A stretch of 64,000 bases of DNA from Methanobacteriota archaeon (lineage in GTDB: Archaea; Thermoplasmatota; Thermoplasmata; UBA10834), in contig CP070748.1 in NCBI GenBank assembly GCA_020348345.1, positions 449,210-513,209 of the forward strand, read 5' to 3'. Shown in pieces: positions 29,872-58,417 of this stretch. The notes beneath the pieces were generated by a model, which had not been told where the DNA came from, did not search any database, and saw only the letters and a list, made by a program, of their open reading frames with translations. How positions within the stretch are numbered: position 1 is the first letter of the stretch; the number at the start of each line of letters is the position of its first letter. The position numbers and the translations under genes are program-made.

Positions 29872-29894
29872 CGGTTGTTTGTATGCACAGCCCC

Positions 29895-39282: not shown

Positions 39283-39768
39283 CTATGCCTCAATGAGTTC
39301 CGCTACTATCTTCTCCACAATCGAGGGGACAGCGGCAGCCACATTCGGTGTGAGGCTCTCACTGACGTTGACGACGTCCGCCGCCTCGACAGCCACGAAT
39401 CGAATGTTGGATGGCATCCTATCCCCTACAAGACGCCTTCCGAGCGCCAAGGCCGTGGCTATATTGATGCCGTGAGGCGATGCGCCGTGGACGGTTCTCT
39501 CGAAGTCGCCTTCTTGCATCGTATGTAATTCCCCCGGGGTGCCGCTCTCGGTTACAATAGCGTCTATTATGACGACATTGTCGTAGTCCAGAACCATGTC
39601 GAGGAGTTCTAGGCCACTTGCCGGCAACTCCTCAACGTCCACACCTGGGAGGGCTCTCTCCTTCAACTTACGGGCGATGTGTATTCCGACGCCGTCATCG
39701 GAGAGAATCGGGTTTCCTACGCCAACAACAAGGGTCTTCTTGCGTCGGCCTTTGCCATTCAGTGTCAT
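39283..39768 (-). CDS. Hydrogenase maturation endopeptidase (HycI/HyaD/FrhD family)
   Basis: TLVVGVGNPILSDDGVGIHIARKL pattern; lies immediately downstream of mvhA. Confidence 0.85.
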   Translation of the reverse strand: MTLNGKGRRKKTLVVGVGNPILSDDGVGIHIARKLKERALPGVDVEELPASGLELLDMVLDYDNVVIIDAIVTESGTPGELHTMQEGDFERTVHGASPHGINIATALALGRRLVGDRMPSNIRFVAVEAADVVNVSESLTPNVAAAVPSIVEKIVAELIEA

Positions 39769-39846
39769 TTGGTGAGTCCTCTCATGCCGCTTCAACCTTA
39801 AGAAAAATATGTTGTCGAGGGGTGTAACCCCTCTTGTCTAAACCGA

Positions 39847-41361
39847 TTAGAAGTTTCTTAGAGTATCTAGCTTCGAACCATCCGCGCGCCTTACATTGAC
39901 CTCAAGCGCAGGCGATCCATTAAGCGCGTGCGTTCCGCAGGAGTTGCACGGGTCGTAGCATCGGAACGCCATCTCAACCTTGTTCAGAAGACCAGGGGAG
40001 ACCTCGCCGTTCTTGATCAAGGCTTTCGCCGCTTGGATAACGCTCGTGTTAATGGCCGCGTAGTTGTTCGTCGTTGCGACTATCATGTTGATCTTCGTGC
40101 ACAGGCCGTCTTTGTCCGAGGCATAGTGGTGTATCAGCGTTCCTCTCGGAGCCTCGCAGATACCTACGCCTTCGGTCGGCTCGTTGACCTCTCCGCGGAT
40201 ATCATCGCTCGTTATGCTCTTGTCGCTGGCTAGTTCAAGCATCCTTTCAGTGGCGTACTGCAGCTCGATGACCCTCGCCCAGTGGAATGCTAGTGTGTGG
40301 TGAACCGGACCTGTCACACCAAGGTCCTTGACCGTCTTTGCCAGCGCTTCATACTCCGCCTGAGCGAGCGGAGTCGTGTAGCCTTCGCAGACATTGATTC
40401 TCCCTAGCGGTCCCACTCTGTAGATGCCGCTCGAAGGTCCGGCCGTGAAGCCGGTCCATCCTACCTGCTTCAGGAATGGCATCTTCATGTAGGTCCAGGG
40501 TTCGACATGCTCGGCGATAACATCCAGATATTCGCTTGGCTTGTACTTCACGACCTCTTTGCCCTCCTGGTCTACAACGCGTATGTCTCCATCGTAGAAG
40601 TTCGTCTTGTTGTCGCTATCGACCATTCCCATGTAGTAGGTCTCGAGGTAGTACGCGTCCTGGTTTAGAACGAGGCCCATGTAGTCCTGGTTGGCCAGCA
40701 CAACGTCGTGCAGCAGCTTGATGGTGAATTTGCCGAACTCCACGCACGACTTCGCCATCTCCTCCATCTGGGCGCGCTCCTCCTCGCTGATCTGCTTGGA
40801 CACGCCTCCAGGGAGACCGAAGCACGGATGCGTGGCCCTCCCGCCGACGATTTCCTGTACCTTCTGACCATACGAACGGTGCTTGATCACCTCTGCGCCG
40901 ATATCGACTCCGACTGCATCAACCACTCCAAGCACGTTCCGCTTGTTCGAGGGTGCGGACGGGCCGAGAACGAAGTCCGGCGCTGCGAGCGCGTAGAAGT
41001 GCGCAATGTGGCTATGGGTGTACTGTCCCATGTAGAACAGCTCTCTGAGCTTCTTCGCCGTCTCGGTAGGCTTTGCATCGAACACAGCATCGAGAGCCTT
41101 GGTCGATGCTATATGATGCGCAGCCGGACACACTCCGCACAGTCTGTTGGTGAGCACCGGCAATTCCTGCACGTGTCTGCCTATACAGAATCGTTCGAAT
41201 CCTCTCAGTTCAGGAACCTGTAGATATGCGTTCGCGACGTTTCCCTCGTCGTTCAGAAATATCTCTATCTTGCCGTGTCCCTCAAGCCTCGTGATCGGGT
41301 CGATCGTTATCTTCTTCTCCGTCGTCTTTGTGGGCGTGTCGTTGATGATTGGTCCTGACAT
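39847..41361 (-). CDS. mvhA: [NiFe] hydrogenase large subunit, Mvh/Vhu type (F420-non-reducing)
   Basis: N-terminal RLEGHG and L1 RLCGVC; C-terminal Ni-binding DPCNSCGTH; no in-frame TGA, so it is the Cys form rather than the Sec form. Confidence 0.9.
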   Translation of the reverse strand: MSGPIINDTPTKTTEKKITIDPITRLEGHGKIEIFLNDEGNVANAYLQVPELRGFERFCIGRHVQELPVLTNRLCGVCPAAHHIASTKALDAVFDAKPTETAKKLRELFYMGQYTHSHIAHFYALAAPDFVLGPSAPSNKRNVLGVVDAVGVDIGAEVIKHRSYGQKVQEIVGGRATHPCFGLPGGVSKQISEEERAQMEEMAKSCVEFGKFTIKLLHDVVLANQDYMGLVLNQDAYYLETYYMGMVDSDNKTNFYDGDIRVVDQEGKEVVKYKPSEYLDVIAEHVEPWTYMKMPFLKQVGWTGFTAGPSSGIYRVGPLGRINVCEGYTTPLAQAEYEALAKTVKDLGVTGPVHHTLAFHWARVIELQYATERMLELASDKSITSDDIRGEVNEPTEGVGICEAPRGTLIHHYASDKDGLCTKINMIVATTNNYAAINTSVIQAAKALIKNGEVSPGLLNKVEMAFRCYDPCNSCGTHALNGSPALEVNVRRADGSKLDTLRNF

Positions 41362-41367
41362 ATAGCA

Positions 41368-42384
41368 TCACCCCTTCCTCTTGCGTTTCTCGGTCACAGT
41401 TCTCTTGAGCAGCGACTTCGGCAGTGTGAAGGCATAGAATGTCCCGAGTGGGTCCTTCACCTGCATCATTAGTTCCATTATCTGCTCCTCACTTAACTTT
41501 GACTCCGAATCCGTGATGTTCAGCAGCGACGACAGCGCGCTCAGCATACTCCCGCCGTGGTCCATGACCGCCTTCGTCGGGCCCATGCAACCCCTGCAGG
41601 GCATGTTGGCTTTCGGGCACATCGAGCCGCATCCAGCTCTCGTCGCTGGGCCAATGCAGATGATCCCCTGATCGAGAAGGCACTTCTTCGGGTCCGCCTT
41701 GATCTCGTATGACTGGTAGATCTTCTCGATCCGTCTTCCCGTCTCGACGCGCTCGCGGTCGCACTCGTCGCACAGGGTCTTGTCCGAAGCGATAACAGCG
41801 CCTTTGGGTGGCAGATCCGCCCCCTCTGTGACGTGCTTCGCCACTGCATCCACTGCCAGAGCGATGAGGTTCACCGTCGGCGGGCATCCCGGCATGAAGT
41901 AGTCCACATCCACAACCTCGTCAAGGGTTTTGACGCTGTCATAGAATTCCGGGAGGTCCAATTCGCCCTCGGGCACCTTCAGCTGTGTCTGAGGCGTTAC
42001 GAAATCGGGGTTGTCCGTCGAGGCGGTGTCCTTGTAGACCGTCTGGAAGACCTCCTTCTTGTTCGTTACATTTGCCAAGCCTGGCGTCCCACCGAAGCAG
42101 GCGCACGATCCAAACGCAATCATCACCGCCGACTTCTCCCGAAGCACCTTCGCCACATGCTCGTTTTCGCTGTTACGTATCGCACCGTTGTAGAACGATA
42201 CGGTGATCGATTTGTCTGGCATAGCCTCTATCTCGGAGAGTTTCCCGTCGAATCCGATCGGCCAGAATACCACCTCGGCTATGGCATGCACATCCAGTAT
42301 CTTCGCATCTATATCCAGCAGGGCAACGTCGCATCCTCCGCAACCAGCCCCCCAGTACTGCGCTATCTTGATCTTGTCTGCCAT
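41368..42384 (-). CDS. mvhG: [NiFe] hydrogenase small subunit, Mvh type
   Basis: N-terminal AQYWGAGCGGC; Fe-S cysteine clusters throughout. Confidence 0.9.
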   Translation of the reverse strand: MADKIKIAQYWGAGCGGCDVALLDIDAKILDVHAIAEVVFWPIGFDGKLSEIEAMPDKSITVSFYNGAIRNSENEHVAKVLREKSAVMIAFGSCACFGGTPGLANVTNKKEVFQTVYKDTASTDNPDFVTPQTQLKVPEGELDLPEFYDSVKTLDEVVDVDYFMPGCPPTVNLIALAVDAVAKHVTEGADLPPKGAVIASDKTLCDECDRERVETGRRIEKIYQSYEIKADPKKCLLDQGIICIGPATRAGCGSMCPKANMPCRGCMGPTKAVMDHGGSMLSALSSLLNITDSESKLSEEQIMELMMQVKDPLGTFYAFTLPKSLLKRTVTEKRKRKG

Positions 42385-42385
42385 C

Positions 42386-42769
42386 TCAGCTCACCTCCTC
42401 GTTCGAAGGTTGGCTTCTCGGAACAGCCTTGTACTGCGGCGACTGTCCGGTCGTGCCGACCTGCTCGATCATCCTCCACCTCTTCAGGGCAATGATGTGC
42501 TGGACGATCTCCGGCTTCGATATGCCCGTCGCGTCGTGCAGCTCGTGCACGGTTCTGGGCTGCTGTTCCATCTGGAGGAGCAGCATGTTTCGCTCCAACT
42601 CCACGGCGGCCGCCTTCTGGAGTATGAAGCTGTATCTCGCATCCGTGATCGTCTCGCCGAACACGTTCTCGCCGGTCGTCAGCGTCTCCTTCTTGCCGAG
42701 GAGCCACCGTATGCGCTCGCCCTCGAGGGTTTTGAGCGCAGCCCGTATCTTGACGTTCCGCGAAGTCAT
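42386..42769 (-). CDS. Winged-helix-like protein homologous to the C-terminal extension of the fused MvhD at 46268..47092; offset by 2 nt from the upstream mvhD
   Basis: FRLKALVGKEFNLLSKGNAYGEEV... (fused copy) aligns with RIRWLLGKKETLTTGENVFGET... (this ORF); wHTH-like segment TVHELHDATGISKPEIVQHIIALKRWRMI. Confidence 0.55.
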   Translation of the reverse strand: MTSRNVKIRAALKTLEGERIRWLLGKKETLTTGENVFGETITDARYSFILQKAAAVELERNMLLLQMEQQPRTVHELHDATGISKPEIVQHIIALKRWRMIEQVGTTGQSPQYKAVPRSQPSNEEVS

Positions 42770-42771
42770 CT

Positions 42772-43233
42772 TCAGTCACCACCTCTGACAGGGGACGGGC
42801 CCAGCTCGTTGACAACGTCCGTGAACTCCACTATCGTCTTCTGGAACCTCTCCCCCTCGCCGGCGGATATCCACTCGAGCTTCAATCGTCCAGGATCGAA
42901 GCCGAACTGCTGAAGCAGTATCCTCAGGAGAGCGATCCTCCTGCGAGTCCTGTAGTTACCTCCGATGTAGTGACAGTCCGCCGGATGGCACCCAGCGACC
43001 AGCACTCCGTCCGCGCCCTTCTGGAACGCTCTCAGAACGAACTCCGGGTCCACTCTCGCGGAGCACATGACCCTGATCACCCTGAAGTGAGGGGGCATCT
43101 GTAATCTGCTTACGCCTGCCAGGTCCGCGCCCGCGTATGAACACCAGTTGCAGCAGAATACGAGGATCCTTGGTTCGAAATCCTCCTGTTCCAACTTGTG
43201 CTCGCCTCCTGCATTTGGGGTCGCACTGCTCAT
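42772..43233 (-). CDS. mvhD: MvhD-like [2Fe-2S] electron-transfer subunit
   Basis: [15 protein letters not shown]...CSARV...[17 protein letters not shown] signature. Confidence 0.85.
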   Translation of the reverse strand: MSSATPNAGGEHKLEQEDFEPRILVFCCNWCSYAGADLAGVSRLQMPPHFRVIRVMCSARVDPEFVLRAFQKGADGVLVAGCHPADCHYIGGNYRTRRRIALLRILLQQFGFDPGRLKLEWISAGEGERFQKTIVEFTDVVNELGPSPVRGGD

Positions 43234-46200
43234 TGCTTCACCTCCTGCTTTCCGAGGAGCCCCTCAAGCGCCGCATCGATCATAGCCACGATCTGCTCGT
43301 CTTTGAATCCCTTCTGTGTCAACGCACCTGACGGGCACGCGCCCACGCACGCGCCACAGCCCTTGCACAGGCCCACGTTGACATCTACGAGCTTCTTAGT
43401 CTCGTCCTTCTTGTCGACGATGATCTCGAGCGCCTTGTATTCGCATGTCGGGACGCAGATGCCGCAGCCGTCGCAGAGAGTCTCATCCAAACTCGCCACT
43501 ATGCCTTCGGCTTCAAGAGTCTTCTTGGACAGTACCGTCATCGCGCGCGCAACGGCGGCGAGACCCTGCCCGATGCTCTCATCGAGGAATTTGGGTCCGT
43601 GCGACAGGCCTGCCAGATAAACCCCCTCCGTCGCGAAGTCGACTGGCCTCAGCTTCATGTGCGCCTCGAGGAAGAAGCCCTCCTTGGTCATCGGGACCTT
43701 GAGCATCGGCGCGAGCGCCTCCGACTCCGGATAGGGCCGTGTGCCCGATGCGAGCACGAGGTAATCGGAGGTCAGGACGACCTCCTTGTCCGTGTCCTCA
43801 TCGGTGACCGTAACCTGCAGCTTGCCTCCCTTGTCCTCGACCTTCGGCTTGACGTCGTCCTCGAACCTGATGAACGTCACGCCCTTCTCGGCCGCGTCCT
43901 TATAGTAGGCCTCTCTGAAACCGTAGGTCCGGATGTCCCTGTAGAGAACGTACACCTTCGCCTCGGGGTTCTTCTCCTTTACCTTGATCGCCGCGGTCAT
44001 CGTTCCTGTGCAGCAGACACGCGAACAGTTCGGATGTCCCTCTTCTCTGGAGCCAACACACTGGATGAACACGTACGAATCGCCCTTGGCCTCGTCCTTC
44101 TTGAGCTTCTCCTTGAACTCGAGAAGTGTGAGCACGTTGGGGTTCTCGCCATAGAGATACTCTCCCTCCGGCTTGTACTCCTGACCGCCCACTGCCAGTA
44201 TAACGACGCCGTGCTCGATCTCCTCTCCGCTGTCGAGCGCGGTCTTGAAGTTCCCCACGTATCCGTCTATATTCTTCACTCCGGTGCCGGTGTGCACGGT
44301 GATGTTGTCGTTCGACATGACCTCCTTGGCCAGCGCATCCGCATGCTCTGTCGGGTCCTCGCCGGACGGCAGATAGTGTAGCTTGCGCAAGTTGCCTCCG
44401 AGCTCCTTCTCCTTCTCGACCAGATGCACCTTCACTCCCTGCTTCGCCATCTCGAGCGCGGCGATCATCCCGGTAGCGCCTCCACCTATTACCAGAGCCT
44501 GTTGGTTCACATCGATGGTCAGGTTCTCCAGTGGCTCCAGCAGCCGGGCCTTCGCCACAGCCATTCGAACCAGGTCCTTCGCCTTCTTCGTGGCAGCCGG
44601 CGCCTCGTGCATGTGGATCCATGAGCACTGGTCCCGTATGTTCGCCATCTCGAACAGATACGAGTTCAGGCCCGCCTCCTTGATGGTGTTCTGGAAGAGC
44701 GGCTCATGCGTCCGGGGCGTGCAGCTCGCCACGACGACCCGGTTGAGCTCGTGCTCCTTGATCATCTCCTTTATCTTCTCCTGGGTATCCTGCGAGCAGG
44801 TGTACAGATTCTCCTCGGCGTATGCGACGTTCGGGAGCGTCCTGGCGTACTCGGCGACTGATGGAACGTTCACCACGCCTCCGATGTTTATGCCGCAGTG
44901 ACATACAAAGACGCCTATGCGAGGCTCCTGGCCCGTTATGTCCAGCTCCTCAGGGTATTCCTTCATGGTGACCAGGCTGTCCCTTGCGGAGGCTATCTCG
45001 GTGGCGGCCTTTGCCGCAGCGCCACTCGCCTCGGCGACGGTCATCGGGATGTCCTTGGGAGATGAGAACGCTCCGCTGACGAAGACGCCCTGCTTGGAAG
45101 AGCTGACCGGGTCGAATACCGTGGTCCGGCAGAAACCGTCCGTGTTCAGATCGAAGCCCATGACCTTGCTCAGAGCCTCCGCGTCCTGCGGCGGCTTCAG
45201 TCCAACGGCGAGAACCACCAGGCCGAATTCCTCCTCCTTCGGTTCGCCCTTCTCGACATACTTGACGACCAGGTTCTTCGTCTCTGGATCCTCGAAGACG
45301 GATGCGACCCTCGAACGCACAAACTCTATGCCGTACTCGTTCTGCGCCCTGTTGTAGTACTCGTCAAACTCCTTGCCAAACGCCCTCATGTCCATGAAGA
45401 ACACCTTGGGCTTGATGTCTCCTCCATGCTCCTTGGCGATTATCGCTTCCTTGATCGAGTACATGCAGCAGACGCCCGAGCAGTACTCGTTTCCGACCTG
45501 CTCGTCCCTCGAGCCCACGCACTGTATGAACGCGATCTTCTCGGGTATGTCTCCATCCGAAGGGCGCAATACGGTGCCGAAGTAGGGCCCCGTGGCGCTG
45601 AGCATCCTCTCGAACTCGATGCTGGTCACGACGTTCTTGTAGACGCCGTATCCGTATTCTCCCTTCATGCGAGCGTCGAACTCGTCGAAGCCTGGAGACA
45701 GTATGATGGAACCCACCTTGATCTCCGAGGTGCTCTCCTCCTGATCGTATACGACCGCCTTGGCCTTGCACTCCTCCGCGCAGATGCCGCAGCCGATGCA
45801 CTTGTCCTTGTCGATGGAGTACACCAGAGGAACCGCCTGCGGGTAGCGGACGTATATCGCCTTGCGAACCTTCGTGTTCTCGTTGTACTCGTCAGAGGTC
45901 TCGATCGGGCAAGTCTGTGCGCACGAACCGCAGCCCGTGCACTTCGCTGGGTCTACCCTCAACGCCCTCTGCTTGACAGTGACGGTGAAATCGCCCGCCT
46001 GGCCGTCCACTGACATGATGTCCGCGTTCGTGACCAGGCTTATGTTGTGGTGTCTTCCCGTCGACACGAGCTTCGGCGCCATGATGCACATCGCACAGTC
46101 GTTCGTCGGGAAGGTCTTGTCCAACTGGGCCATCGTGCCTCCTATGCTGGGCTGCTTCTCGACGAGATATACCTTGAATCCGGAGTCGGCTAGGTCAAGG

Positions 46201-46271
46201 GCGGATTGCAGGCCTGATATCCCTCCTCCGACCACCATGACTGCGCCAACCTTGTCAGTAGCTGCCATCAC
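43230..46271 (-). CDS. hdrA: Extended heterodisulfide-reductase subunit A homolog (about 1013 aa) with an extra N-terminal FAD/NAD(P)-binding module
   Basis: The N-terminal part (VMVVGGGISGLQSALDLA...TFPTNDCAMCI) precedes a complete canonical HdrA. That core contains [30 protein letters not shown] and C-terminal ferredoxin CDGCGIC/CKGCGAC. Confidence 0.85.
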   Translation of the reverse strand: MMAATDKVGAVMVVGGGISGLQSALDLADSGFKVYLVEKQPSIGGTMAQLDKTFPTNDCAMCIMAPKLVSTGRHHNISLVTNADIMSVDGQAGDFTVTVKQRALRVDPAKCTGCGSCAQTCPIETSDEYNENTKVRKAIYVRYPQAVPLVYSIDKDKCIGCGICAEECKAKAVVYDQEESTSEIKVGSIILSPGFDEFDARMKGEYGYGVYKNVVTSIEFERMLSATGPYFGTVLRPSDGDIPEKIAFIQCVGSRDEQVGNEYCSGVCCMYSIKEAIIAKEHGGDIKPKVFFMDMRAFGKEFDEYYNRAQNEYGIEFVRSRVASVFEDPETKNLVVKYVEKGEPKEEEFGLVVLAVGLKPPQDAEALSKVMGFDLNTDGFCRTTVFDPVSSSKQGVFVSGAFSSPKDIPMTVAEASGAAAKAATEIASARDSLVTMKEYPEELDITGQEPRIGVFVCHCGINIGGVVNVPSVAEYARTLPNVAYAEENLYTCSQDTQEKIKEMIKEHELNRVVVASCTPRTHEPLFQNTIKEAGLNSYLFEMANIRDQCSWIHMHEAPAATKKAKDLVRMAVAKARLLEPLENLTIDVNQQALVIGGGATGMIAALEMAKQGVKVHLVEKEKELGGNLRKLHYLPSGEDPTEHADALAKEVMSNDNITVHTGTGVKNIDGYVGNFKTALDSGEEIEHGVVILAVGGQEYKPEGEYLYGENPNVLTLLEFKEKLKKDEAKGDSYVFIQCVGSREEGHPNCSRVCCTGTMTAAIKVKEKNPEAKVYVLYRDIRTYGFREAYYKDAAEKGVTFIRFEDDVKPKVEDKGGKLQVTVTDEDTDKEVVLTSDYLVLASGTRPYPESEALAPMLKVPMTKEGFFLEAHMKLRPVDFATEGVYLAGLSHGPKFLDESIGQGLAAVARAMTVLSKKTLEAEGIVASLDETLCDGCGICVPTCEYKALEIIVDKKDETKKLVDVNVGLCKGCGACVGACPSGALTQKGFKDEQIVAMIDAALEGLLGKQEVKQ

Positions 46272-47092
46272 TGCTCACCCCCAATTGCGATGGTCTTGTA
46301 GACCGGAGTGAATCCCTCCGGGTGCTCCATCGCGATCTTGCTGTTCTGCCTAAGCAGAACGATGTGTCTGAGTATCTTGTCGGTAGGGACGTCCATGACC
46401 ATGCCCAACTGCTTGACCGACATCGGCCGTATCCTCGCGAGTTCAAGTATGAGCGCCCTCTCGAACTCGTCCTGGGTAGCCACGTCTATTACGCCAGTCA
46501 GCTTCTCAGCGTCCACCTCCTCACCGTACGCGTTCCCTTTTGAGAGAAGATTGAACTCCTTGCCGACCAGAGCCTTCAGCCTGAATGTCTGGGAAGCGTC
46601 GTCGGCGGCGGAGACCTTCGCCTTCATCATGTCGTCCGAACGCACCTTGCTGGGTCCCAGCTTCTGTATCCCCTCCGTGAACTCAGTGACCACCTTGGAG
46701 AACTTCTCGCCTTCGGATGCAGAGACCCATTCGAGCCTCAGCCTGCCTTCGTCAATCCCCGCCTCCTTGAGGAGCCTCTTCATGAGTTCCACGCGCTTCT
46801 CGGTGTGGAAGTTGCCTGTCATGTAGTGGCAGTCGTTGAGGTGGCAGCCTCCGATGAGTATCCCGTCGGCACCCGCCTCAAAGACGTCGAGCACCAGGTG
46901 CGGGCTCACTCTCGTGGAGCACATGACCCTGACGAGACGTATGTTCGTCGGATACTGGAATCTGCTTACTCCACATAGGTCCGCGCCGGCGTACGAGCAC
47001 CAGTTGCATAGGAAGCCGACAATCTTCGGCTCCCACTCCTTGTCCGGCTCGTGCTTCTTGCCGTGATGAGCGGTGTGATGCTTTTGCGCCAT
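46268..47092 (-). CDS. MvhD fused to a C-terminal wHTH-like domain
   Basis: MvhD signature ([15 protein letters not shown]...GGCHLNDCHY) over about 140 aa, then a roughly 130 aa domain (LARIRPMSVKQLGMVMDVPTDKILRHIVLLRQNSKI) homologous to ORF 42386..42769. Confidence 0.8.
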   Translation of the reverse strand: MAQKHHTAHHGKKHEPDKEWEPKIVGFLCNWCSYAGADLCGVSRFQYPTNIRLVRVMCSTRVSPHLVLDVFEAGADGILIGGCHLNDCHYMTGNFHTEKRVELMKRLLKEAGIDEGRLRLEWVSASEGEKFSKVVTEFTEGIQKLGPSKVRSDDMMKAKVSAADDASQTFRLKALVGKEFNLLSKGNAYGEEVDAEKLTGVIDVATQDEFERALILELARIRPMSVKQLGMVMDVPTDKILRHIVLLRQNSKIAMEHPEGFTPVYKTIAIGGEQ

Positions 47093-47095
47093 CTA

Positions 47096-48973
47096 TCACA
47101 CCTCCTCCAAGGCCGCTTTGGCCTCCGCAAGCAGCTGCTGGTCGGTGTAATGCGTCATTGTGATCGCCCCCTCCGGGCATGTGGCGCCGCAGCAACCGCA
47201 GCCCTTGCACGCGGCGACGATAACCTCGCTGATGCCATCGTCGTTCTTTCTCAGAGCGCCGTACGGGCACACCTCGACGCATGTTCCGCAGCCGGTACAT
47301 TTCGTCTCATCGACTCTCGATGTGAGAGCCTCGGCCTGAACGTAACCGTTCGCGAGAGGTATCGCCGCTCTTGAGGCAGCGGCCGAAGCCTGGGATGCCG
47401 CCTCTGCGATGTCCGCCGGTCCTCTGCAGGTTCCGCACACATAGACGCCGTCCGTCGCGAAGTCGACCGGTCTCAGCTTGACATGTGCCTCCTGGAAGAA
47501 GCCGTCCTGGCCCAATGGCACCTTGAGCAGCTGGGACAGAGTGGCGGCGTCTGGCTGTGACACGAGCGGGGTAGAGAGTATGACCATATCAACCGGCATG
47601 GTCCTCTCCATCTTCAGCGTCTCGTGGAAATATCCAACCTCGAGCTTCCCGTCCTTCGTTGATACCTTCGGGAGGTTGTCCGGCAAGTATCTGATGAACT
47701 TGACCCTCTTTTCTCTGGCCTTGTTGAACTCCAGCTCGTGTTCGACGCCATACGCCATCACGTCCCTGTTGAACACCGTGATCTCCACTCCGCTGGATGG
47801 GGCACCGCCTTCGTCGGCAGCCTCGTCGGCCTCTCGCCTGCCTCTGCCGCGTCTCCTTCGCCTCCTCTCAAGTCCCTCATCCTCCGCCTTCATCTCGGCA
47901 GCAGGTTCCTCGACGACCTGGCCGGCTTCCGCCTCTGCCTTCTCCTCGGTCGCGCCGAGCATGTTGTCTCGGTTCTCAGCTATGTTGATCGCCGTCTTGA
48001 TTGCGACATTGCAGCAGATCCTGGAGCAGTACGAGACCTTCTGTCCTCTTGCTCCAGCGCATTGTATGAAAGCGACGCTCTTCAGCTTGGGAATCTCCTT
48101 CTTGTTGCAGAGTTCCTCGAATTCCATGGACGTGACGACGTTCGGATGTTCCTTGTAACCGAACAGGCCCTCCGGTACCAGCGGGATCGCGCCCGTGGCA
48201 ACGATGATGGCGCCCACCTTGACCTCCTTGGACTCAGATCCTTCTGTGCCTATGGAGACATCGTAATTCCCTATGAATCCCTCCACGGTCGCAACGTGCG
48301 AGTTGACGTACTGTGTGATGTTCTTCTGGGCGTTCACCTTGTCGATGAGTGGCTGAATGGCCTCGTTTGCGCTCTTCTTCGTCATCATCAGACCGTGCAG
48401 GTTCTTCACAAATCCTCCGAGTTCCTTCTCCTTCTCGACCAGATGCACGGGGAATCCCATGTTAGCGAGCGAAAGCGCTGCCGTCATTCCGGCAACTCCG
48501 CCTCCGACGACGAGAGCGGCAGGCGTAACATCGATCTTCGTCTCCTCCTGAGGCTCCAGGAATCGAGCCCTCGCCACGCCCATCCTTACCAGGTCCTTGG
48601 CCTTCTGGGTCGCCTTCTCCTTCTCCTTCATGTGAACCCATGAACAGTGCTCACGTATGTTGACGAAAGTGAACATGTACTTGTTTACGCCAGCAGCCTC
48701 GCACGTGCGCTGGAATAGCGGGGCATGAGTCCGCGGTGTGCAGCTCGAGACCACCACTCTGTCCAGGTTGTGCTCTTTGATGCTCTCCTTGATGTTATTG
48801 AGGCCGTCCTCGGCACATGTGTAGAGGTTGTCTGTGGCGTACACGACGTCCGGAAGGGTCGACGCGTACTCGGTCACGGCCTTGACATCGACGAATCCGC
48901 CTATGTTCGAGCCGCAGTGGCAGATGAATACTCCGATCCGTGGCTTCTTCTCAATGTTTGTGTCTTCGGGCAT
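47096..48973 (-). CDS. Divergent HdrA-like flavoprotein with an Arg/Glu-rich low-complexity insertion
   Basis: PRIGVFICHCGSNIGG N-domain and LVVGGGVAGMTAA FAD motif, but GGFVKNLHG replaces [16 protein letters not shown]; insertion AEAEAGQVVEEPAAEMKAEDEGLERRRRRRGRGRREADEAADEGG; C-terminal 2x[4Fe-4S] ferredoxin. Confidence 0.7.
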   Translation of the reverse strand: MPEDTNIEKKPRIGVFICHCGSNIGGFVDVKAVTEYASTLPDVVYATDNLYTCAEDGLNNIKESIKEHNLDRVVVSSCTPRTHAPLFQRTCEAAGVNKYMFTFVNIREHCSWVHMKEKEKATQKAKDLVRMGVARARFLEPQEETKIDVTPAALVVGGGVAGMTAALSLANMGFPVHLVEKEKELGGFVKNLHGLMMTKKSANEAIQPLIDKVNAQKNITQYVNSHVATVEGFIGNYDVSIGTEGSESKEVKVGAIIVATGAIPLVPEGLFGYKEHPNVVTSMEFEELCNKKEIPKLKSVAFIQCAGARGQKVSYCSRICCNVAIKTAINIAENRDNMLGATEEKAEAEAGQVVEEPAAEMKAEDEGLERRRRRRGRGRREADEAADEGGAPSSGVEITVFNRDVMAYGVEHELEFNKAREKRVKFIRYLPDNLPKVSTKDGKLEVGYFHETLKMERTMPVDMVILSTPLVSQPDAATLSQLLKVPLGQDGFFQEAHVKLRPVDFATDGVYVCGTCRGPADIAEAASQASAAASRAAIPLANGYVQAEALTSRVDETKCTGCGTCVEVCPYGALRKNDDGISEVIVAACKGCGCCGATCPEGAITMTHYTDQQLLAEAKAALEEV

Positions 48974-48979
48974 GTCTGT

Positions 48980-51685
48980 TCACCCCCCTCCTGAATTCGC
49001 GAGGATCTCCGCCGCCTTGGCAGCTGCGCTTGATCCCTGGGCAACGGATTCCGGTATGTCTGCAGGTCCCGCGCAGTACCCAGCAAGATAGACTCCAGGC
49101 ACCTCGCTTCTGCCGAAGTCCAGGATGCTATCGGGGGACTCGAAGAATCCGAACTCAGTCAGCTTCAGCCCGAGCTCCTCGGCCAGCTCGACCGTGTCCT
49201 TCCTTGGGACGAGCGTAGTCGCGAGGACGACCGCGTCGAACTCCTCCGACTGCTGTTTTCCTCCGATATCGAACACGACGACAGGATTGTGCGTTTCAGC
49301 GTTCTCCTGGACGGTCGCGTCGGAGTTGATGTAGCTGACTCCATAATCGCTCTTCGCCCTCTCGACGTACTCGTTGAATCCTTTCGCGCAGGCCCGCATG
49401 TCCTTGTAGAATATCGTCGAATTGATGTCCTCATAGTGCTCTCTGGCGAGCATAGCCTCCTTCGTTGCGTGCATGCAACATACCGCGCAGCAATACGGGT
49501 GCCCAACCTGTGGGTTTCTGGATCCGACGCACTGTATGAACGCCAGCTTCTTCGGATGCTCTCCATCGGACCGTCTGACGATGTGTCCTCCAGTCGGTCC
49601 AGCAGCGTTGATCATGCGCTCATATTCCATAGCTGTGTAGACGTTCGGGTACTTCTTGTAGCCGTACTCCGAGGCGGATGTCGGATCCCATACGTCGAAT
49701 CCTGTTGCGACTATGATTGCCGCAGGGTTCAGCGCCACGGTCTGGTCCTTCATGTTGTAGTCGATGGCGTCCGGTCCGCACGCAGGCGCGCACGCCTCAC
49801 ACTGGGAGCACGGTCCGCAGCTGACGCATCGAGCCGCCTCCTTCAGAGCTTCCTCCTTCGTGAAGATCTTCTCGACCTCTTCGAAAGAGGTTCTGCGCTT
49901 GTCGTCAGGAAGGTGCTGCCTCAGAATCCGTTCGCTCTTCGTAATCTCTCCCTTCATTCTCGCTTTGATGTCCTCAAGGGTGATGACATGCTCGTCCTTT
50001 TCCTCTGGCACCGGCTCGATGCTCTCGCCGTTCAGCATCTTCTCGATGTACAGCGCAGCTTTGTTGCCAGCGCCGAACGCCTCCACAGCCGACGCTGGTC
50101 CCGAAACAGCATCTCCGCCGGCAAATACGCCCTCTACGTTAGTGCTGAGGTTACCCGCGTTCACTTCAAGGGTATTCCATTTCGTAACGGCGAGGTTCTT
50201 TGAGCCCAGAGTGTCAAGATCTGGTGCCTGGCTTACCGCAGGTATGACCGTGTCTACTTCAACCTTGAATTCCGACCCCTCGACAGGCACGGGCCGTGGC
50301 CTGCCGGATTTGTCAGGTTCGCCGAGCTTCATTCGAATGCATTCAATGGATGCGATCTTGCCGTCCTTCCCCTCGATCTTCACCGGCGAAGCGAGGAACT
50401 CGAACTTGACGCCTTCATCTTCCGCGCCCTTTATCTCAGCTGAGATGGCCGGCATCTCGTCCCTGGTTCGGCGGTATATCACTGTTACATCTGAGCCCAT
50501 CCGCAAGGCGGTCCTCGCAGCGTCCATAGCCGCGTTGCCACCGCCTATGACTGCTACCTTTTTGCCGATCTTGACCTGCTCCTTGTCGGCAACTTTGTGA
50601 AGGAAATCCACCCCATGGACGACCCCTTCCAGGTCTTCTCCAGGCACGTCCAGTTTGAGACTCCTGTGAGCTCCTATTGCCAGGAAGACGGCGTCGTATT
50701 CCTTCTTCAGATCATCTAGCGACATGTCCTTGCCAATGGTCTTGCCATACTCGATTTCTATGCCATGCGCAAGCAGGAAGTCGACCTCCGCTTTGAGCAC
50801 GTCTTTTGGAAGGCGATAATCGGGAATACCCCACCAGAGCATCCCACCGGGCTTCGAAGTCGCTTCGAAGATCTTGACTTTAAAACCTTTGAGAGCGAGT
50901 CGGAAGGCCGCTGCCAAACCGGCTGGGCCAGCTCCAACGACCGCCACCTTCTCCTTCCGATCCTCCTCGATCGTGGCCGGCACATCTTCGCCCTGCTCGC
51001 GAACGTAGTCTCCCACGAATGCCTTCAATCCAGCAATGGCCACGGGGTCGTCGACGTCATTTCTGTTGCAGCCCTCTTCACACGGGTGATGGCAAATGCG
51101 TCCACACACGGAGGGTAGGGGTATTGTCCTCCGTATAAGATTCACTGCTTCCTTGAACTTCTCGGCTCGTATGAGCGCCACATATCCCTGCGCGCTCAGC
51201 CCGGCCGGACATTTGTCAGAGCATGGCGCCACACCGGCTCTGTCAATCGTCGCCGCCCTTGGAACTGACTGAAGGAACGGCATGTAGATGGCAGGCCTTT
51301 CCCTCATGTCCATGTCGAACTCATTTGGAAGGCTGACAGGGCAGACCTTGAAACAGTCGCCGCAGCCAGTGCACTTCTCCTCGTCGACGAACCTGGCCTT
51401 CCGGAGCACGTCAACCTTGAAATCCCCAGCCTCCCCGGAGATATTCTTGACCTCCGAGTAGGTCATGACGTTGATGTTGGGGTGCGCGTAGCAGTCCGCC
51501 ATCTTCGGCGCCAGGATGCATATCGAGCAATCGTTCGTAGGGAAAGTCTTGTCCAGCTGTGCCATTCTTCCGCCGATGCTGGGCAGCTTCTCGACCAGGT
51601 CGACCGTGATTCCCTTGTCGGCTAGGTCCAAAGCAGCCTGTATTCCGGCAATTCCGCCTCCGATAACCAATACGGATTTCTTCAA
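48980..51685 (-). CDS. HdrA-like protein with an inserted complete GltD/NfnB-type NAD(P)H:FAD oxidoreductase module (HdrL-like)
   Basis: HdrA FAD motif ([18 protein letters not shown]...[11 protein letters not shown]). GltD signatures: VCGRICHHPCEEGC, VAVVGAGPAGLAAA, WGIPDYRLPK, VAVIGGGNAAMDAA, VFAGGD. C-terminal HdrA segments ([23 protein letters not shown]). TTG start with a GGGGG SD. Confidence 0.8.
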   Translation of the reverse strand: MKKSVLVIGGGIAGIQAALDLADKGITVDLVEKLPSIGGRMAQLDKTFPTNDCSICILAPKMADCYAHPNINVMTYSEVKNISGEAGDFKVDVLRKARFVDEEKCTGCGDCFKVCPVSLPNEFDMDMRERPAIYMPFLQSVPRAATIDRAGVAPCSDKCPAGLSAQGYVALIRAEKFKEAVNLIRRTIPLPSVCGRICHHPCEEGCNRNDVDDPVAIAGLKAFVGDYVREQGEDVPATIEEDRKEKVAVVGAGPAGLAAAFRLALKGFKVKIFEATSKPGGMLWWGIPDYRLPKDVLKAEVDFLLAHGIEIEYGKTIGKDMSLDDLKKEYDAVFLAIGAHRSLKLDVPGEDLEGVVHGVDFLHKVADKEQVKIGKKVAVIGGGNAAMDAARTALRMGSDVTVIYRRTRDEMPAISAEIKGAEDEGVKFEFLASPVKIEGKDGKIASIECIRMKLGEPDKSGRPRPVPVEGSEFKVEVDTVIPAVSQAPDLDTLGSKNLAVTKWNTLEVNAGNLSTNVEGVFAGGDAVSGPASAVEAFGAGNKAALYIEKMLNGESIEPVPEEKDEHVITLEDIKARMKGEITKSERILRQHLPDDKRRTSFEEVEKIFTKEEALKEAARCVSCGPCSQCEACAPACGPDAIDYNMKDQTVALNPAAIIVATGFDVWDPTSASEYGYKKYPNVYTAMEYERMINAAGPTGGHIVRRSDGEHPKKLAFIQCVGSRNPQVGHPYCCAVCCMHATKEAMLAREHYEDINSTIFYKDMRACAKGFNEYVERAKSDYGVSYINSDATVQENAETHNPVVVFDIGGKQQSEEFDAVVLATTLVPRKDTVELAEELGLKLTEFGFFESPDSILDFGRSEVPGVYLAGYCAGPADIPESVAQGSSAAAKAAEILANSGGG

Positions 51686-51846
51686 TCAAAAACCCCCTTC
51701 TCAAATCTCATGTTCATTCGCATTTGCATTGTGCCTACTGCAATCAACGAACCCCTTTTGCCTTTGCGGTATTGAGTCTCTTCTTTTATGTGTTTCGTTT
51801 GGCCATTGGCGAATCTTGTGCGATGAACGCTTCGCGAATCGCCTCG

Positions 51847-53442
51847 TCATTCCAACGCCTCCGCAATCGCCACGCTGAGGTCCTTGATCTTGATGTCCAC
51901 CTGCTCCTTCGGTATCCCTTCGAGCTTGTTGTCTCGAGCGCAAGCCAGATGAATCAGGCACTTGTAACATCCCGTGACAAGGCAGTCCGCTCCCGTCTTC
52001 TTGGCCTCCTTAAGCCTCTCCACCTGCAGCTTGCGCGCGATATCGTCACACGTTGCCCAGGAGCTTACCCCGCAGCAGGTTGCCTTGTCCTTCGTGTTCT
52101 CCATCTCCACTACGTCGGCTCCGAAGCCCTTCATGGCGTTCCTGGGCGAGTCGTAGATCCCCAGGTGTCTGCCCAGTCGGCAAGAGTCCTGGAAGGTCAG
52201 CTTGTCGGCACCTTTCTTGAACTTCAGTTTTCCATCCTGGATCAGGTCGTCCACGAACTCGGATACGTGGGTCATCTCGAATTCGAAGTCACCCATAAAG
52301 TCCTGATAGTCCATGTCGAAGGTTCTCATGCATTCAGGGCAGGAGAACACGACGGTCTTCGCTCCGGAGGCCTTGATGAGCTCTACATTCCTCTTCATCA
52401 GCTTCTGCAGCCCCTCCTCGTCGCCAGTCCAGTTGAGATCATGCCCGCAGCACACCTCATCGTTGCTGACAACAGGGGTTATGCCTGCACTGTTCATTAT
52501 CTTGACCACAGACTGAGGTATGCCAGCGAGGTTGAGCTCTCTGTCGCGGAAGATAGCATCGAAATACGACACGCATCCAGTGAAGTAGAAGACATCACCC
52601 TTGTCCGCCACCTTCAACTCTGGTGTGAGCCATCCCAGTCTGTCTTGCTTGAAATCTCCGTGTGCCTGGAATCGCATCATTCCCTGCAGGAGTCCACCCT
52701 GACTGCATGCGGGCGTTGCCTCGTTGGCCGCCGCCTCGGTCCTCAATCCTCTGATGAAGCCAGAGTAGTCCACTTTGTACGGGCACATCGAGTTGCACTG
52801 TTCACATGTTATGCAGGTCCAGATATCGTTGCTGGCAACGATGGAATCGGCCTGTCCTTCCGTCGCCTTCAGCACAATCGTTCTGGGGGCGAACTCGGGG
52901 TTGTACTTGGCAACGGGACATACGGTCGTGCACTTGCCGCACTCGACGCAGTCGAAAGCCCCAGTGTCCTCGACGAGGCGATCGACGCTGGGCTTGAGTT
53001 TGGCGGGATCGTAGGTCTTCTTCGGAAGCTTTGGTATCGGGTTGGGGCCTAGCTCTCGTATGCTATCCGTGAATTCCTTCATCGTCGAGGCGAACTTCTG
53101 ACCCTCCGAGGCGGAGATCCATTCCAATCTCATACGGGCCCTGCCTATGCCGACCACGTCCAGCAGGTCCTGTGTGGCCTTCATTCTCTTTTCCGCTTCG
53201 ACGTTTCCGGATATGTAATGACAGTCACCTATGTGGCATCCAGCCACGAGTACGCCATCCGCACCCAGCTCGAGCGCCCTCAGAACAAAGTACGGCTCCA
53301 CCCTTCCAGAGCACATCACCCGGATGATGCGCGCGTTTGGAGGATACTGCATTCTGCTGACCCCTGCCAAGTCCGCGCCGGCGTACGAGCACCAGTTGCA
53401 GCAGAAGGCTACGATGTTCGGCTCGAATTTCTCGCCAGTCAT
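51847..53442 (-). CDS. MvhD-HdrC-HdrB tripartite fusion protein
   Basis: N-terminal MvhD ([15 protein letters not shown]...[10 protein letters not shown]), middle 2x[4Fe-4S] HdrC-like ([12 protein letters not shown] ... [12 protein letters not shown]), C-terminal HdrB CCG-domain pattern (CCGHDLN ... CCGVSSW). The start overlaps the hdrA stop (ATGA); the ORF track extends further 5' inside hdrA. Confidence 0.8.
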
Positions 53443-56400: not shown

Positions 56401-56474
56401 TCCAATGCGGCCTGCATGCCCGCTGGTCCTCCTCCCACGACCAGGGCCGCGCCGACGAGTTCGTTATCCGCCAT
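53439..56474 (-). CDS. hdrA: Extended HdrA homolog (about 1011 aa), close paralog of 43230..46271
   Basis: Same architecture as 43230..46271; the central region is roughly 85% identical at the protein level, with near-identical nucleotide stretches. Confidence 0.85.
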
Positions 56475-56476
56475 CG

Positions 56477-56920
56477 TTATGCACTCTCCTCAGCAATAGG
56501 GCCCAGCGTCTGTAGTTCAGCGACCATCTTCTTCACGACGTCGGCGAACTTCTGACCCTCCGAGCCCGCAATCCATTCCACTCTGAACCTCTGCGGCTCC
56601 AGGCCCGCATCCTCAAGGAACTCCGAAAGAAAGATCCCCCTCATGGCCGTCTTCTCATTGCCGTTGATGTAGTGACAGTCAGAGGGATGACATCCGGCGA
56701 CGATGACGCCGTCTGCCCCCAGCGAGAACGCCTTGAGAACAAATGCCGGATCGACTCTCCCGGAGCACATGACCCTGATGATTCTGACGTTTGCAGGATA
56801 CTGAAGCCTCGTCGTACCTGCTAAATCCGCACCAGCATATGAACACCAATTGCAGCAGAAGGCTACGATTTTCGGCTCAAAGGCGGGGTGCTCCATCTCC
56901 GGGTTCGTCCCCTCTTCCAT
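56477..56920 (-). CDS. mvhD: MvhD-like [2Fe-2S] subunit
   Basis: [15 protein letters not shown]...AGCHPSDCHY. The ORF track's N-terminal extension overlaps hdrB in another frame; the true start is the Met just after the hdrB stop. Confidence 0.85.
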   Translation of the reverse strand: MEEGTNPEMEHPAFEPKIVAFCCNWCSYAGADLAGTTRLQYPANVRIIRVMCSGRVDPAFVLKAFSLGADGVIVAGCHPSDCHYINGNEKTAMRGIFLSEFLEDAGLEPQRFRVEWIAGSEGQKFADVVKKMVAELQTLGPIAEESA

Positions 56921-56922
56921 GG

Positions 56923-57840
56923 CTAGGTCCCCCTGAGCTTCCTGAGGAATGAGTGTGCTGATACGTGATGAGTGTCGAAGCCCAGAGAGATCGGATCGAT
57001 CCCCATTGCCAGGGCCTGGAACTGCGAGACATGCATCACCGGAATCCCTTCCTTTGTGAAGGACTTCTGCGCGTTGTCGAACTGAAGGAGGCAGAACGGG
57101 CAGCCTGTGACGATGCAGTCGGCCCCCGCGTCGGCTATGTTCCTGCACTTGTCCTCGGTGAGCGAATTGGCCAAGTCCACAACGTGGGACCGCACGCCCC
57201 CGCCCGCTCCGCAACAGTCCAATCGATCCTCGTACTCGACGCTCGTTGCGCCACATGTCTCGACGATCTTGTCGATGTTGACGGGGTCGTTGGGGTCGTC
57301 GATGGTTTGGTTCTCGGTAGGTCTTAGGTAATGGCAGCCGTAGTGCACGGCAGCTCTTATGTTCTTGAGAGGACGTTTCGCGTGTTCGGCGATGCTCTCC
57401 AGGCCGACGTCGTTGATCATGAGGTCTACGTAATGCCGCACCTTCACCGGCTCCATTATGCGCCGCCGCCCCTCAGTCTTCCTCGGAATGCCGGTGTACT
57501 TCCTGCCTATCTGAGAGAGAACTCTGTTCACCTTGCCGAGATTCTTCGGATCCGTGAGGTATTCGGTCGCCTTCAGGAGGGACGTAAGGCAGCCGTTGCA
57601 GACGGTGAGGATCTCCCTCCGCTCGTTCTGGGCGAGCGTCAGATTGCGAGCCGCCAGAAGGAGCCATGTGTTCTTGTCGGACGAGTAGAAGATGCCAGGT
57701 ACAGGACAGCAAGAGAACTCCTTGATGTCCTCAACGTCCAGGTTGAACCCGTCGCTTCCGCAGACCCATCTCACGGCATATTCGATGCCTGGATACCTGT
57801 TTGGTATTATGCATCCGAAGAAATACGCGTACTGGCTCAA
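56923..57840 (-). CDS. hdrB: Heterodisulfide reductase subunit B
   Basis: Two CCG domains (FSCCPVPG ... LDCCGAGGG); HdrB-like length. Confidence 0.9.
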   Translation of the reverse strand: MSQYAYFFGCIIPNRYPGIEYAVRWVCGSDGFNLDVEDIKEFSCCPVPGIFYSSDKNTWLLLAARNLTLAQNERREILTVCNGCLTSLLKATEYLTDPKNLGKVNRVLSQIGRKYTGIPRKTEGRRRIMEPVKVRHYVDLMINDVGLESIAEHAKRPLKNIRAAVHYGCHYLRPTENQTIDDPNDPVNIDKIVETCGATSVEYEDRLDCCGAGGGVRSHVVDLANSLTEDKCRNIADAGADCIVTGCPFCLLQFDNAQKSFTKEGIPVMHVSQFQALAMGIDPISLGFDTHHVSAHSFLRKLRGT

Positions 57841-58415: not shown

Positions 58416-58417
58416 CT

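Follow-up and report, generated by a model that had tools for sequence, protein, structure and literature searches.

A winged-helix extension of MvhD-type adaptors, encoded once in cis and once in trans in a hydrogenase and HdrA operon of an uncultured Thermoplasmata archaeon

HdrA-based flavin electron bifurcation makes use of interchangeable modules, and little is understood of what pairs an input module with its HdrA core. The 64-kb stretch of DNA analysed here (the window) comes from an uncultured member of the Thermoplasmata and contains an operon in which this matching can be asked about in concrete terms. Of its two genes for MvhD-type [2Fe-2S] adaptors, one encodes the adaptor and a C-terminal domain (Cdom) as a single polypeptide, and the other is followed by a separate open reading frame that encodes the domain alone. 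Is the second arrangement a genuine one or the remains of a broken gene, and what might the domain contribute to a redox complex?

An operon with two MvhD genes

The operon runs on the minus strand from 51685 to 39283 in the order HdrL-like, HdrA-like, MvhD~Cdom, tandem HdrA, MvhD, Cdom, MvhG, MvhA, protease. Its first gene (48980..51685; Pfam and synteny) encodes a 901-aa HdrL-like protein, in which Pfam finds an HdrA-type N-terminus and an NAD(P)H module resembling GltD/NfnB (Fer4_20 and Pyr_redox_2). Then comes a 625-aa HdrA-like flavoprotein (47096..48973; Pfam), directly upstream of the fused gene, and the positions of both flavoproteins are kept in relatives, as judged by synteny. The fused MvhD~Cdom gene (46268..47092; ORF, Pfam and homologues) encodes 274 aa, with the MvhD domain at residues 24-146 (46655..47023; PF02662 and Foldseek) and Cdom at residues ~150-270 (46283..46645; AlphaFold model, alignment and conservation profile). 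It is followed by the gene of a 1013-aa tandem, or fused-dimer, HdrA (43230..46271), with two Pyr_redox/FAD modules and ferredoxin domains in Pfam; overlaps of 4 nt join this gene to both of its neighbours, its start to the stop of the fused gene and its stop to the start of the next mvhD. This second mvhD (42772..43233; ORF and Pfam) encodes 153 aa without the extension and ends in RGGD-TGA. A 2-nt AG spacer (42770..42771; read in the sequence and in a survey of junctions at 48 loci) separates its stop from the start of the 127-aa standalone Cdom (42386..42769; ORF, alignment, Pfam, model and homologues), which forms its own cistron and whose stop lies 1 nt ahead of the mvhG start. The [NiFe]-hydrogenase genes follow, mvhG for the small subunit (41368..42384; Pfam Oxidored_q6, E=2e-73 to 5odc_E) and mvhA for the large one (39847..41361; Pfam NiFeSe_Hases), and the last gene encodes a hydrogenase maturation protease of the HycI type (39283..39795; Pfam HycI).

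Against PF02662 (FlpD/MvhD; cut-off 22.3 bits), the fused protein scores 177.6 bits over its MvhD domain (E=1.2e-52) and the 153-aa protein 184.2 bits over residues 23-145, and the MvhD parts of the two share 54% identity (E=9e-65). The fused protein is 55% identical to solved MvhD (5odc_D/5odh_D) in its N-terminal part only (E=3.5e-53 to 5odc_D), and its MvhD domain gives a Foldseek TM score of 0.82, normalised to the target, against 5odh_D; full-length relatives of 260-296 aa form at least 120 clusters. Canonical MvhD, as seen in the MvhAGD-HdrABC complex (PDB 5odc, 7bkb, 8rvu), shares the fold and 49-55% identity over the N-terminal 130-140 residues, and the window mvhD gene lies, as in methanogens, close to mvhG and mvhA. 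All solved MvhD chains, however, are 129-141 aa long and without Cdom, whereas in the window the domain is fused to one MvhD and, for the other, encoded by the gene that follows.

The junction between mvhD and the standalone Cdom

The two ORFs match the fused paralogue collinearly and lie only 2 nt apart, as would be expected if mvhD at 42772-43233 and the ORF at 42386-42769 were one gene interrupted by a frameshift, be it a pseudogene, an assembly error or a site of programmed frameshifting. The junction itself reads ...GGT GGT GAC TGA, then AG, then the ATG at 42769 that opens the 127-aa ORF, in agreement with the 2-nt distance given in the initial annotation. Against a broken gene, an ATG of its own opens the downstream ORF, and just upstream of this codon lies a purine-rich stretch, GAGGTGGTGA, which looks like a Shine-Dalgarno site. 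In the Cdom frame, a TGA is found 9 nt before this ATG, so that the open frames of mvhD and Cdom overlap by only one nucleotide, and the overlap contains no slippery heptamer (X XXY YYZ).

The relatives of this locus bear on the point as well. Across 48 loci drawn from independent assemblies the junction is split in every case, with spacers of -4, -1, +1, +2, +5 and +10 nt, a frame offset that is +2 at 39 of the loci and +1 at the other 9, and either TGA or TAG as the stop. Sequencing or assembly error as a cause of the split is ruled out by this survey. In all 45 related species-level loci (45/45), the downstream pair is split and the upstream copy is fused, and, wherever the contig is long enough, these 45 loci share the gene order HdrL-HdrA-[MvhD~Cdom]-2xHdrA-MvhD-Cdom-MvhG-MvhA-HycI. 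The standalone form is a conserved family of 112-130 aa (146 clusters, 64-100% identity). Its members of 123-130 aa are strongly constrained, the mean column identity of 70 standalone proteins being 77% with the non-HTH N-terminal part included, and the standalone Cdom is under strong purifying selection.

The split copy is an old and conserved arrangement and not a broken gene, the latter being an explanation that we find scarcely credible. A frameshifted pseudogene, one of the origins initially proposed, does not fit a split that is kept in 45 loci and 146 clusters while its junctions vary; programmed frameshifting, another of them, is at odds with the differing offsets, the one-nucleotide overlap and the lack of a slippery site. 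One observation in favour of a break comes from four Methanomassiliicoccales-labelled loci, in which the downstream ORF has no canonical start upstream of the conserved codons, and non-standard translation is therefore possible in that clade. In the window, translation of the standalone Cdom would begin at its own ATG and be coupled to that of mvhD. Internal frameshifts are present in these genes in the long-read assemblies L017, L024, L031 and L039, and we treated them as assembly noise.

A winged-helix module that accompanies MvhD

In a single pairwise comparison, residues 159-268 of the 274-aa protein form a gapless alignment with the standalone 127-aa protein (E=6e-11; 25% identity, 50% positives). 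The standalone protein scores 27.6 bits over residues 60-102 against the Pfam family HTH_5 (ArsR, PF01022), whose gathering score is 22; the fused C-terminus has no Pfam match of its own, HTH_5 included. A winged helix-turn-helix fold is present in Cdom according to structure models and fold comparison, in which the structural nearest neighbours of the standalone copy are transcription factors. The alignment and Pfam results place the similarity far beyond chance. The initial annotation had described 46268..47092 as MvhD plus a wHTH-like C-terminal domain, recurring alone and collinearly at 42386..42769, and had suggested structure prediction and a fold search; ORFs, Pfam, alignment and models all bear this description out, and the fusion or fission pair that it envisaged is supported as a pair of paralogues. 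Cdom comprises about 115-125 residues, with an N-terminal helical part followed by the winged helix. In the AlphaFold model of the fused copy, three short helices, bearing the motif FRLKALVGKE..L..KGNAYGE, precede the winged helix (~195-267), and the N-terminal motif is kept in the family as R-x-R-W-L-x-G-K...G-N-V-Y-G-E.

An exhaustive profile search returned 311 Cdom representatives (at 50% identity), 166 of them at E<1e-10. The best 149 of the 311 comprise 77 MvhD+Cdom fusions, 3 proteins with a double Cdom and 69 with Cdom alone, some of the latter being gene calls split at a selenocysteine. An index-based search with the fused C-terminus alone gave 3 partial proteins, a sensitivity artefact when set against the at least 120 clusters found with the full-length query and the 311 found with the profile. 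In both Archaea and Bacteria, the domain is almost always attached or adjacent to MvhD, in some cases with selenocysteine, and it also occurs within giant polypeptides such as a 1737-aa HdrA-MvhD-Cdom-GltD. GltD/NfnB-like genes adjoin Cdom in six unrelated contexts, and tandem HdrA adjoins it in the window and at L002, L050, L054/55, L056/57 and L059. In Pfam and in the literature searched, we found no name or description for the MvhD-associated domain: an archaeal fusion and fission survey mentions HdrA-HdrA-MvhD fusions and not Cdom (PMC11237513), and MvhD together with 'winged helix' or 'ArsR' led only to an unrelated genome paper and to a preprint on BamF.

That preprint reports by cryo-EM that, in the class II benzoyl-CoA reductase of Geobacter metallireducens (BamBCDEFGHI), BamE is a fused HdrA dimer and BamF an MvhD adaptor that exceeds the known ones in length by more than 100 aa, and that the winged helix-turn-helix of BamF interfaces with BamI of the electron-input module (10.64898/2026.04.10.717634). 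The window protein likewise consists of MvhD and an extension of more than 100 aa with a winged helix, and its gene, like bamF beside bamE, adjoins that of a fused-dimer HdrA. We traced the homology to BamF through a proxy, the BamF-position protein P0414 of a metagenomic, bacterial Bam-like cluster (L054/55: AOR/BamB-like, BamC-like, tandem HdrA, then MvhD~Cdom), together with the verbal description in the preprint; PDB sequence and Foldseek searches returned no BamF or benzoyl-CoA reductase entry. The 274-aa protein is 40% identical to P0414 over 250 aa, end to end, the C-terminus of P0414 also matches the standalone ORF (E=3e-14), and the 1013-aa tandem HdrA shares 47% identity over 1010 aa with the BamE-position protein of L055. 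On the evidence of sequence, the fused copy can be assigned to the BamF type of extended MvhD adaptors, and the tandem HdrA can be described, from Pfam and this identity, as BamE-type. Unlike the Bam system, the window has neither a tungsten AOR (BamB/C) nor BamGHI genes, the partners being the MvhAG hydrogenase and the HdrL/HdrA-like flavoproteins; it encodes a second Cdom copy as a separate gene, and the N-terminal motif of its fused protein (CNWCSY) has Cys and not Sec. Among the large ORFs of the whole 64-kb window none has an AFOR domain, and the cluster is therefore not a benzoyl-CoA reductase. Cdom would mark BamF-type adaptors well outside aromatic degradation.

Docking, activation or regulation

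We think it reasonably probable that Cdom extends MvhD-type [2Fe-2S] adaptors for the purpose of protein-protein docking within electron-bifurcating complexes based on HdrA. The tandem HdrA would be the flavin core of such a complex, and the two flanking MvhD adaptors would each link it to one electron-input module. The fused MvhD~Cdom would lead, in the manner of BamF, to an HdrL/GltD-like module of the NAD(P)H type, a candidate partner of the fused Cdom being the 901-aa HdrL-like protein, whereas the unfused MvhD, together with the separately translated Cdom, would lead to the MvhAG hydrogenase, the docking module being supplied in trans. That Cdom contacts input modules, and which module each copy contacts, we infer with the support of the gene neighbourhood. 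The conserved split, the strong selection, the linkage to MvhD, the giant polypeptides, the GltD and tandem-HdrA neighbours and the likeness to BamF were taken as support for docking. Adjoining the other tandem HdrA in the window are MvhDs without Cdom (56477-~56900, and an MvhD-HdrCB fusion within 51847-53559), so that the domain is not needed for the contact between MvhD and tandem HdrA as such. Having Cdom in cis and in trans in one operon, beside a hydrogenase, this uncultured lineage offers a natural experiment on Cdom as a possible determinant of partner choice.

Canonical methanogen MvhD binds both MvhAG and HdrA without any Cdom (5odc), and it is therefore not obvious that docking requires the hydrogenase-linked copy; compared with 5odc_E, MvhG has small insertions only, with no clear docking site. 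That canonical Mvh can do without the domain would also suit a factor for assembly or maturation, or an 'activator' subunit with a regulatory role, which binds the complex transiently instead of being a permanent docking element, as would the location of the standalone copy among hydrogenase structural and maturation genes. The winged-helix protein DsrD provides a parallel, as it activates DsrAB allosterically (PMC8794893). DsrD is small, is encoded in the dsr operon alongside genes for redox enzymes, and has the enzyme and not DNA as its target; the likeness is one of analogy only, DsrD being an allosteric activator whereas Cdom is read here as an adaptor extension. In most family members, however, Cdom shares a polypeptide with MvhD, either as a covalent fusion of the two or within HdrA-MvhD-GltD proteins, and the winged helix of BamF is a resolved part of the complex (10.64898/2026.04.10.717634); both argue for a permanent structural role, and we hold a transient factor to be quite unlikely.

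A DNA-binding role is plausible on the fold alone, given the HTH_5 score, the structural neighbours and the basic character (pI 9.4) of the standalone copy. The 127-aa protein could be an ArsR-type transcription factor controlling the mvh/hdr operon, and the fused copy a one-component redox sensor whose binding to DNA is gated by the [2Fe-2S] cluster of MvhD. ArsR/SmtB regulators carry a dimerisation helix after the wing, as well as inducer- or metal-sensing residues. Cdom shares the winged helix with them, but both of its models stop after the beta hairpin, with no helix past the wing, and it lacks residues that would sense metals or thiols, as well as any other evident site for sensing, not one cysteine being present in either window copy; it has, in addition, the conserved N-terminal motif and the linkage to MvhD, and the fused copy falls below the Pfam threshold. 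The winged-helix part is roughly neutral, with an acidic wing in the fused copy, and an acidic residue (E or D) opens the recognition helix in both window families. Among 128 family members, the most conserved positions are those of the N-terminal motif and the fold core, and not those that the 'recognition' helix exposes on its surface. The gene lies in mid-operon, squeezed between mvhD and mvhG, and throughout the family the domain is tied to MvhD or embedded in catalytic polypeptides; in BamF, the winged helix is a protein interface (10.64898/2026.04.10.717634). No operator-like inverted repeat was found in the two promoter-like gaps (60500-60890 and 51680-51860), where a single 9-nt palindrome is present, although this is weak evidence. 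The redox-responsive regulator of the initial annotation hence finds no support, and we consider control of the operon by Cdom unlikely: the domain is probably not a DNA-binding regulator. As a simple guide to annotation, small 'ArsR family regulators' that lie between mvhD and mvhG are probably subunits of the complex and not regulators.

Both functions could be combined in a detachable subunit, the standalone Cdom docking MvhD to the hydrogenase and the tandem-HdrA core when bound and, when released, binding DNA and adjusting the expression of the operon, which would connect an electron-bifurcating machine physically and directly with transcription. We regard this as very improbable. The basic standalone Cdom, its ArsR match above threshold and its existence as a free polypeptide are compatible with it, and its DNA-binding half has no positive support; release might depend, for example, on how far the complex is assembled or on its redox state.

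As regards the docking extension, an association of MvhD with HdrL has been described before. HdrL, an HdrA/glutamate-synthase fusion, is co-located with an MvhD gene in the sulfate reducer Desulfobacterium autotrophicum (PMC2702500), and the window, with an HdrL-like gene in its MvhD operon, resembles these pairs. In that paper no C-terminal module is described on MvhD, in contrast to the fused protein of the window. A further locus from a MAG (L053), consisting of HdrA, a Sec-containing MvhD~Cdom and then an HdrL-like gene, resembles the D. autotrophicum pairs as well.

Operon anatomy and adaptor genes

A nine-gene, densely packed operon lies on the minus strand, as defined from the window's ORFs and domains. 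It begins with an HdrL-like gene (901 aa, 48980-51685), in which an HdrA-type N-terminus is joined to GltD/NfnB-like Fer4_20 and Pyr_redox_2 domains, followed by an HdrA-like gene (625 aa, 47096-48973), an MvhD with a C-terminal module (274 aa, 46268-47092), a tandem HdrA (1013 aa, 43230-46271), an MvhD (153 aa, 42772-43233), a 127-aa ORF consisting of the module alone (42386-42769), MvhG (41368-42384), MvhA (39847-41361) and a HycI-type protease (39283-39795). Genes overlap by 4 nt or are separated by 1-6 nt, except for the gap of about 50 nt between mvhA and the protease. Upstream is a second hdr cluster (51847-60511), with hdrA, hdrC, hdrB, mvhD, a second tandem HdrA and an MvhD-HdrC-HdrB fusion, past which hypF, hypC, hypA and hypD are located. 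The remaining genes are archaeal housekeeping genes, and close relatives are all labelled Thermoplasmata or Thermoplasmatota. A clostripain-family (Peptidase_C11) gene pair of 401 and 388 aa (28497-31061, minus strand) is unrelated to the module.

Both tandem HdrA genes (within 51847-56900 and 42772-47092) have an MvhD-type gene on either side: mvhD, the 1011-aa tandem HdrA and the MvhD-HdrC-HdrB fusion in one set; the MvhD-module gene, the 1013-aa tandem HdrA and mvhD in the other. This flanking, seen again in the comparison loci L050 and L056, suggests that the tandem-HdrA pseudo-dimer has two non-equivalent adaptor sites. In the fusion, one ORF (51847-53559, minus strand) unites adaptor and disulfide-reductase module: MvhD (FlpD, residues 49-171) is joined to a 4Fe-4S dicluster domain of HdrC type and to HdrB-like CCG domains in a single polypeptide. 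As listed, this ORF runs into the tandem HdrA gene at its end, and its real start is therefore probably farther downstream.

The split between mvhD and the module

The initial annotation had described the 127-aa ORF as starting 2 nt after the mvhD stop and as collinear with the fused paralogue. The junction is exactly as described (GGT GGT GAC TGA AG ATG ACT), and residues 159-268 of the 274-aa protein give an ungapped alignment with the 127-aa protein at 25% identity (E=6e-11). The MvhD parts of the 274-aa and 153-aa proteins are 54% identical. This arrangement had left room for a pseudogene or programmed frameshifting, besides gene fission or fusion. Both forms, however, make up families of their own: the standalone proteins fall into 146 clusters, every one of 112-130 aa, with 64-100% identity to the query and a mean column identity of 77%, and the fused proteins into at least 120 clusters of 260-296 aa. 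With MvhD and module profiles mapped onto 45 species-representative and several metagenomic loci, the mvhD adjoining mvhG is separate from the module, and the mvhD upstream of the tandem HdrA fused to it, in every mapped locus; some genomes (L002, L016, L035 and L045) have two fused copies and a split copy. Across 48 junctions, start candidates fall -4, -1, +1, +2, +5 or +10 nt from the mvhD stop, which is TGA or TAG; 39 loci show a frame offset of +2 and the other 9 one of +1. Conservation of the split at all mapped loci, with varied spacers, offsets and stops, and the lack of any slippery heptamer at the window junction, argue against a pseudogene, sequencing error or frameshifting; for the window locus, a pseudogene or programmed frameshift is extremely improbable. 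Here a TGA in the module's frame lies 9 nt 5' of its ATG, and the two open frames thus share one nucleotide. The stretch GAGGTGGTGA 5' of this ATG looks like a Shine-Dalgarno element and, judging from the sequence, we read mvhD and the module ORF as two cistrons under ordinary translational coupling.

In L041:5270-5390, L042:897-1017, L043:9944-10064 and L044:40-160, from relatives labelled Methanomassiliicoccales, ATG, GTG and TTG are absent upstream of the module's conserved first helix, the codons of which vary synonymously and are thus apparently translated. Initiation may use a conserved ATC or an internal Met-Met, trimming the helix, or a +1 shift may occur at GAC-UGA-U; in the sister locus L040 the module has a normal ATG. 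Four long-read MAG contigs (L017, L024, L031 and L039) have frameshift-like breaks in genes that every other locus has intact: mvhD, the module and hdrA. Indel errors in assembly are the probable cause, which makes these records unfit as junction evidence.

Fold and distribution of the module

By Pfam, FlpD/MvhD covers the N-terminal ~145 residues, and ArsR HTH_5 matches over threshold in the standalone ORF only, not in the fused copy. AlphaFold predicts three short helices, a long helix and a strand-helix-helix-hairpin (pLDDT 88.8 for the standalone copy; pLDDT 80.3, pTM 0.80 for the fused protein). The last element is a winged helix in the confident models of both copies, which bears out the earlier wHTH-like assignment. 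Top-ranked Foldseek matches are ArsR/SmtB proteins, with weak E-values, and Foldseek returned no structural match to the module's N-terminal third. Neither copy contains cysteine in the module. Among 128 diverse members, conservation is highest in an N-terminal motif, R-x-R-W-L-x-G-K...G-N-V-Y-G-E, a long-helix glutamate, core hydrophobics and the wing G-x-x-P-x-Y, and exposed recognition-helix positions are variable. The winged-helix part is near neutral, with an acidic wing in the fused copy; the standalone copy carries its positive charge mainly in the N-terminal helices.

An exhaustive search of 1.84 billion representatives, using a profile built from both forms, found 311 proteins (166 at E<1e-10), the best 149 of which comprise 77 with MvhD and module, 69 with the module alone and three with two modules. 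Some lone or N-terminally truncated matches are pieces of genes that gene calling broke at in-frame TGA codons for selenocysteine, so the standalone count is inflated. Such codons occur at conserved Cys positions in the MvhD-module gene L053:2415-3137 (CIW*AY versus CNWCSY in the window) and in L059:2499-9995, where hdrA and mvhD are split; they probably encode selenocysteine, as with Sec19 of BamF. The module is also found within larger polypeptides, namely HdrA-MvhD-module proteins of 810 and 685 aa and a 1737-aa chain (L051:3055-8268) ordered HdrA-like, MvhD, module, GltD/NfnB-like, effectively a fully fused input-adaptor-core protein; the L051 contig has the archaeal markers eIF-1A, RIO1 and KH. 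In neighbourhoods sampled over unrelated sequences, recurrent neighbours of the module are a tandem HdrA of ~1000 aa and GltD/NfnB-like Fer4_20 plus Pyr_redox_2 genes (L050, L051, L053, L054/L055, L056/L057 and L061). With one cluster member annotated as Thermodesulfobacteriota, the family is represented in both Bacteria and Archaea.

Likeness to BamF and possible roles

[quoted passage not shown] PDB sequence and Foldseek searches, with BamF not among the entries, found no module-type extension in solved MvhDs (129-141 aa). In a bacterial cluster (L054:1-14773, L055:863-14773), two AOR (BamB-like) genes with small Fe-S partners (BamC-like) and a 1020-aa tandem HdrA precede the 263-aa MvhD-module protein P0414. 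In a cluster resembling class II benzoyl-CoA reductase, this is where BamF would lie. The places of BamGHI and BamD in G. metallireducens are taken by a GltD/NfnB-like gene and separate genes of HdrC/HdrB type, and the cluster may encode a benzoyl-CoA-reductase-type variant that uses another input module. Aligned over 250 residues with a single gap, the 274-aa protein and P0414 share 40% identity (E=1e-69), the standalone ORF matches the P0414 C-terminus (E=3e-14), and the window tandem HdrA is 47% identical to the BamE-position protein over 1010 residues. Judged through this proxy, the fused protein is a new BamF-kind extended MvhD adaptor, although, unlike BamF, it lies outside a benzoyl-CoA reductase and is paired with a hydrogenase.

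The module probably acts in docking, bringing the [2Fe-2S] relay of MvhD up to an electron-input module. For the fused copy this would be the NAD(P)H-type HdrL/GltD-like module, and for MvhD with the trans-encoded module it would be the MvhAG hydrogenase, both routes feeding the tandem-HdrA core; we infer the partner of each copy, as well as that the module does not bind DNA. Besides the gene associations and the likeness to BamF, the cysteine-free composition, the conservation of the N-terminal motif and core alongside variable exposed recognition-helix positions, and the near-neutral winged helix with its acidic fused wing favor docking. Against it, canonical Mvh works without such a module, the MvhDs beside the window's other tandem HdrA lack it, and the standalone copy resembles an ArsR protein by profile, fold and pI. 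The last point would fit a genuine ArsR-type regulator, which, together with a one-component redox sensor, we regard as unlikely: a module lacking cysteine has no thiols or clusters of its own with which to sense redox. The redox-responsive regulator proposed initially is not supported. It is slightly less probable still that the module activates the complex transiently or helps to assemble it; the analogy is with DsrD, a winged-helix allosteric activator of DsrAB (PMC8794893).

The literature searches found no paper describing the module as a family, returning only the BamF preprint and automatically assigned IMG names, for instance 'delta subunit/ArsR family regulator'. The structural principle, a winged-helix extension on an MvhD adaptor, was recently described for BamF (10.64898/2026.04.10.717634); the conserved trans-encoded copy is a new variation on it. 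In practical terms, annotation is improved and a testable model is obtained for matching input modules to HdrA cores.

At L056:10001-15644, the MvhD-module gene is followed by a tandem HdrA, a Sec-split MvhD, DUF5981 and MTHFR (MetF), a gene order resembling the Hdr-MetFV arrangement of methylene-tetrahydrofolate reductase but with a tandem HdrA. In the same locus, a 131-aa module encoded on its own (19171-19566) immediately precedes a 1483-aa HdrL-like gene.
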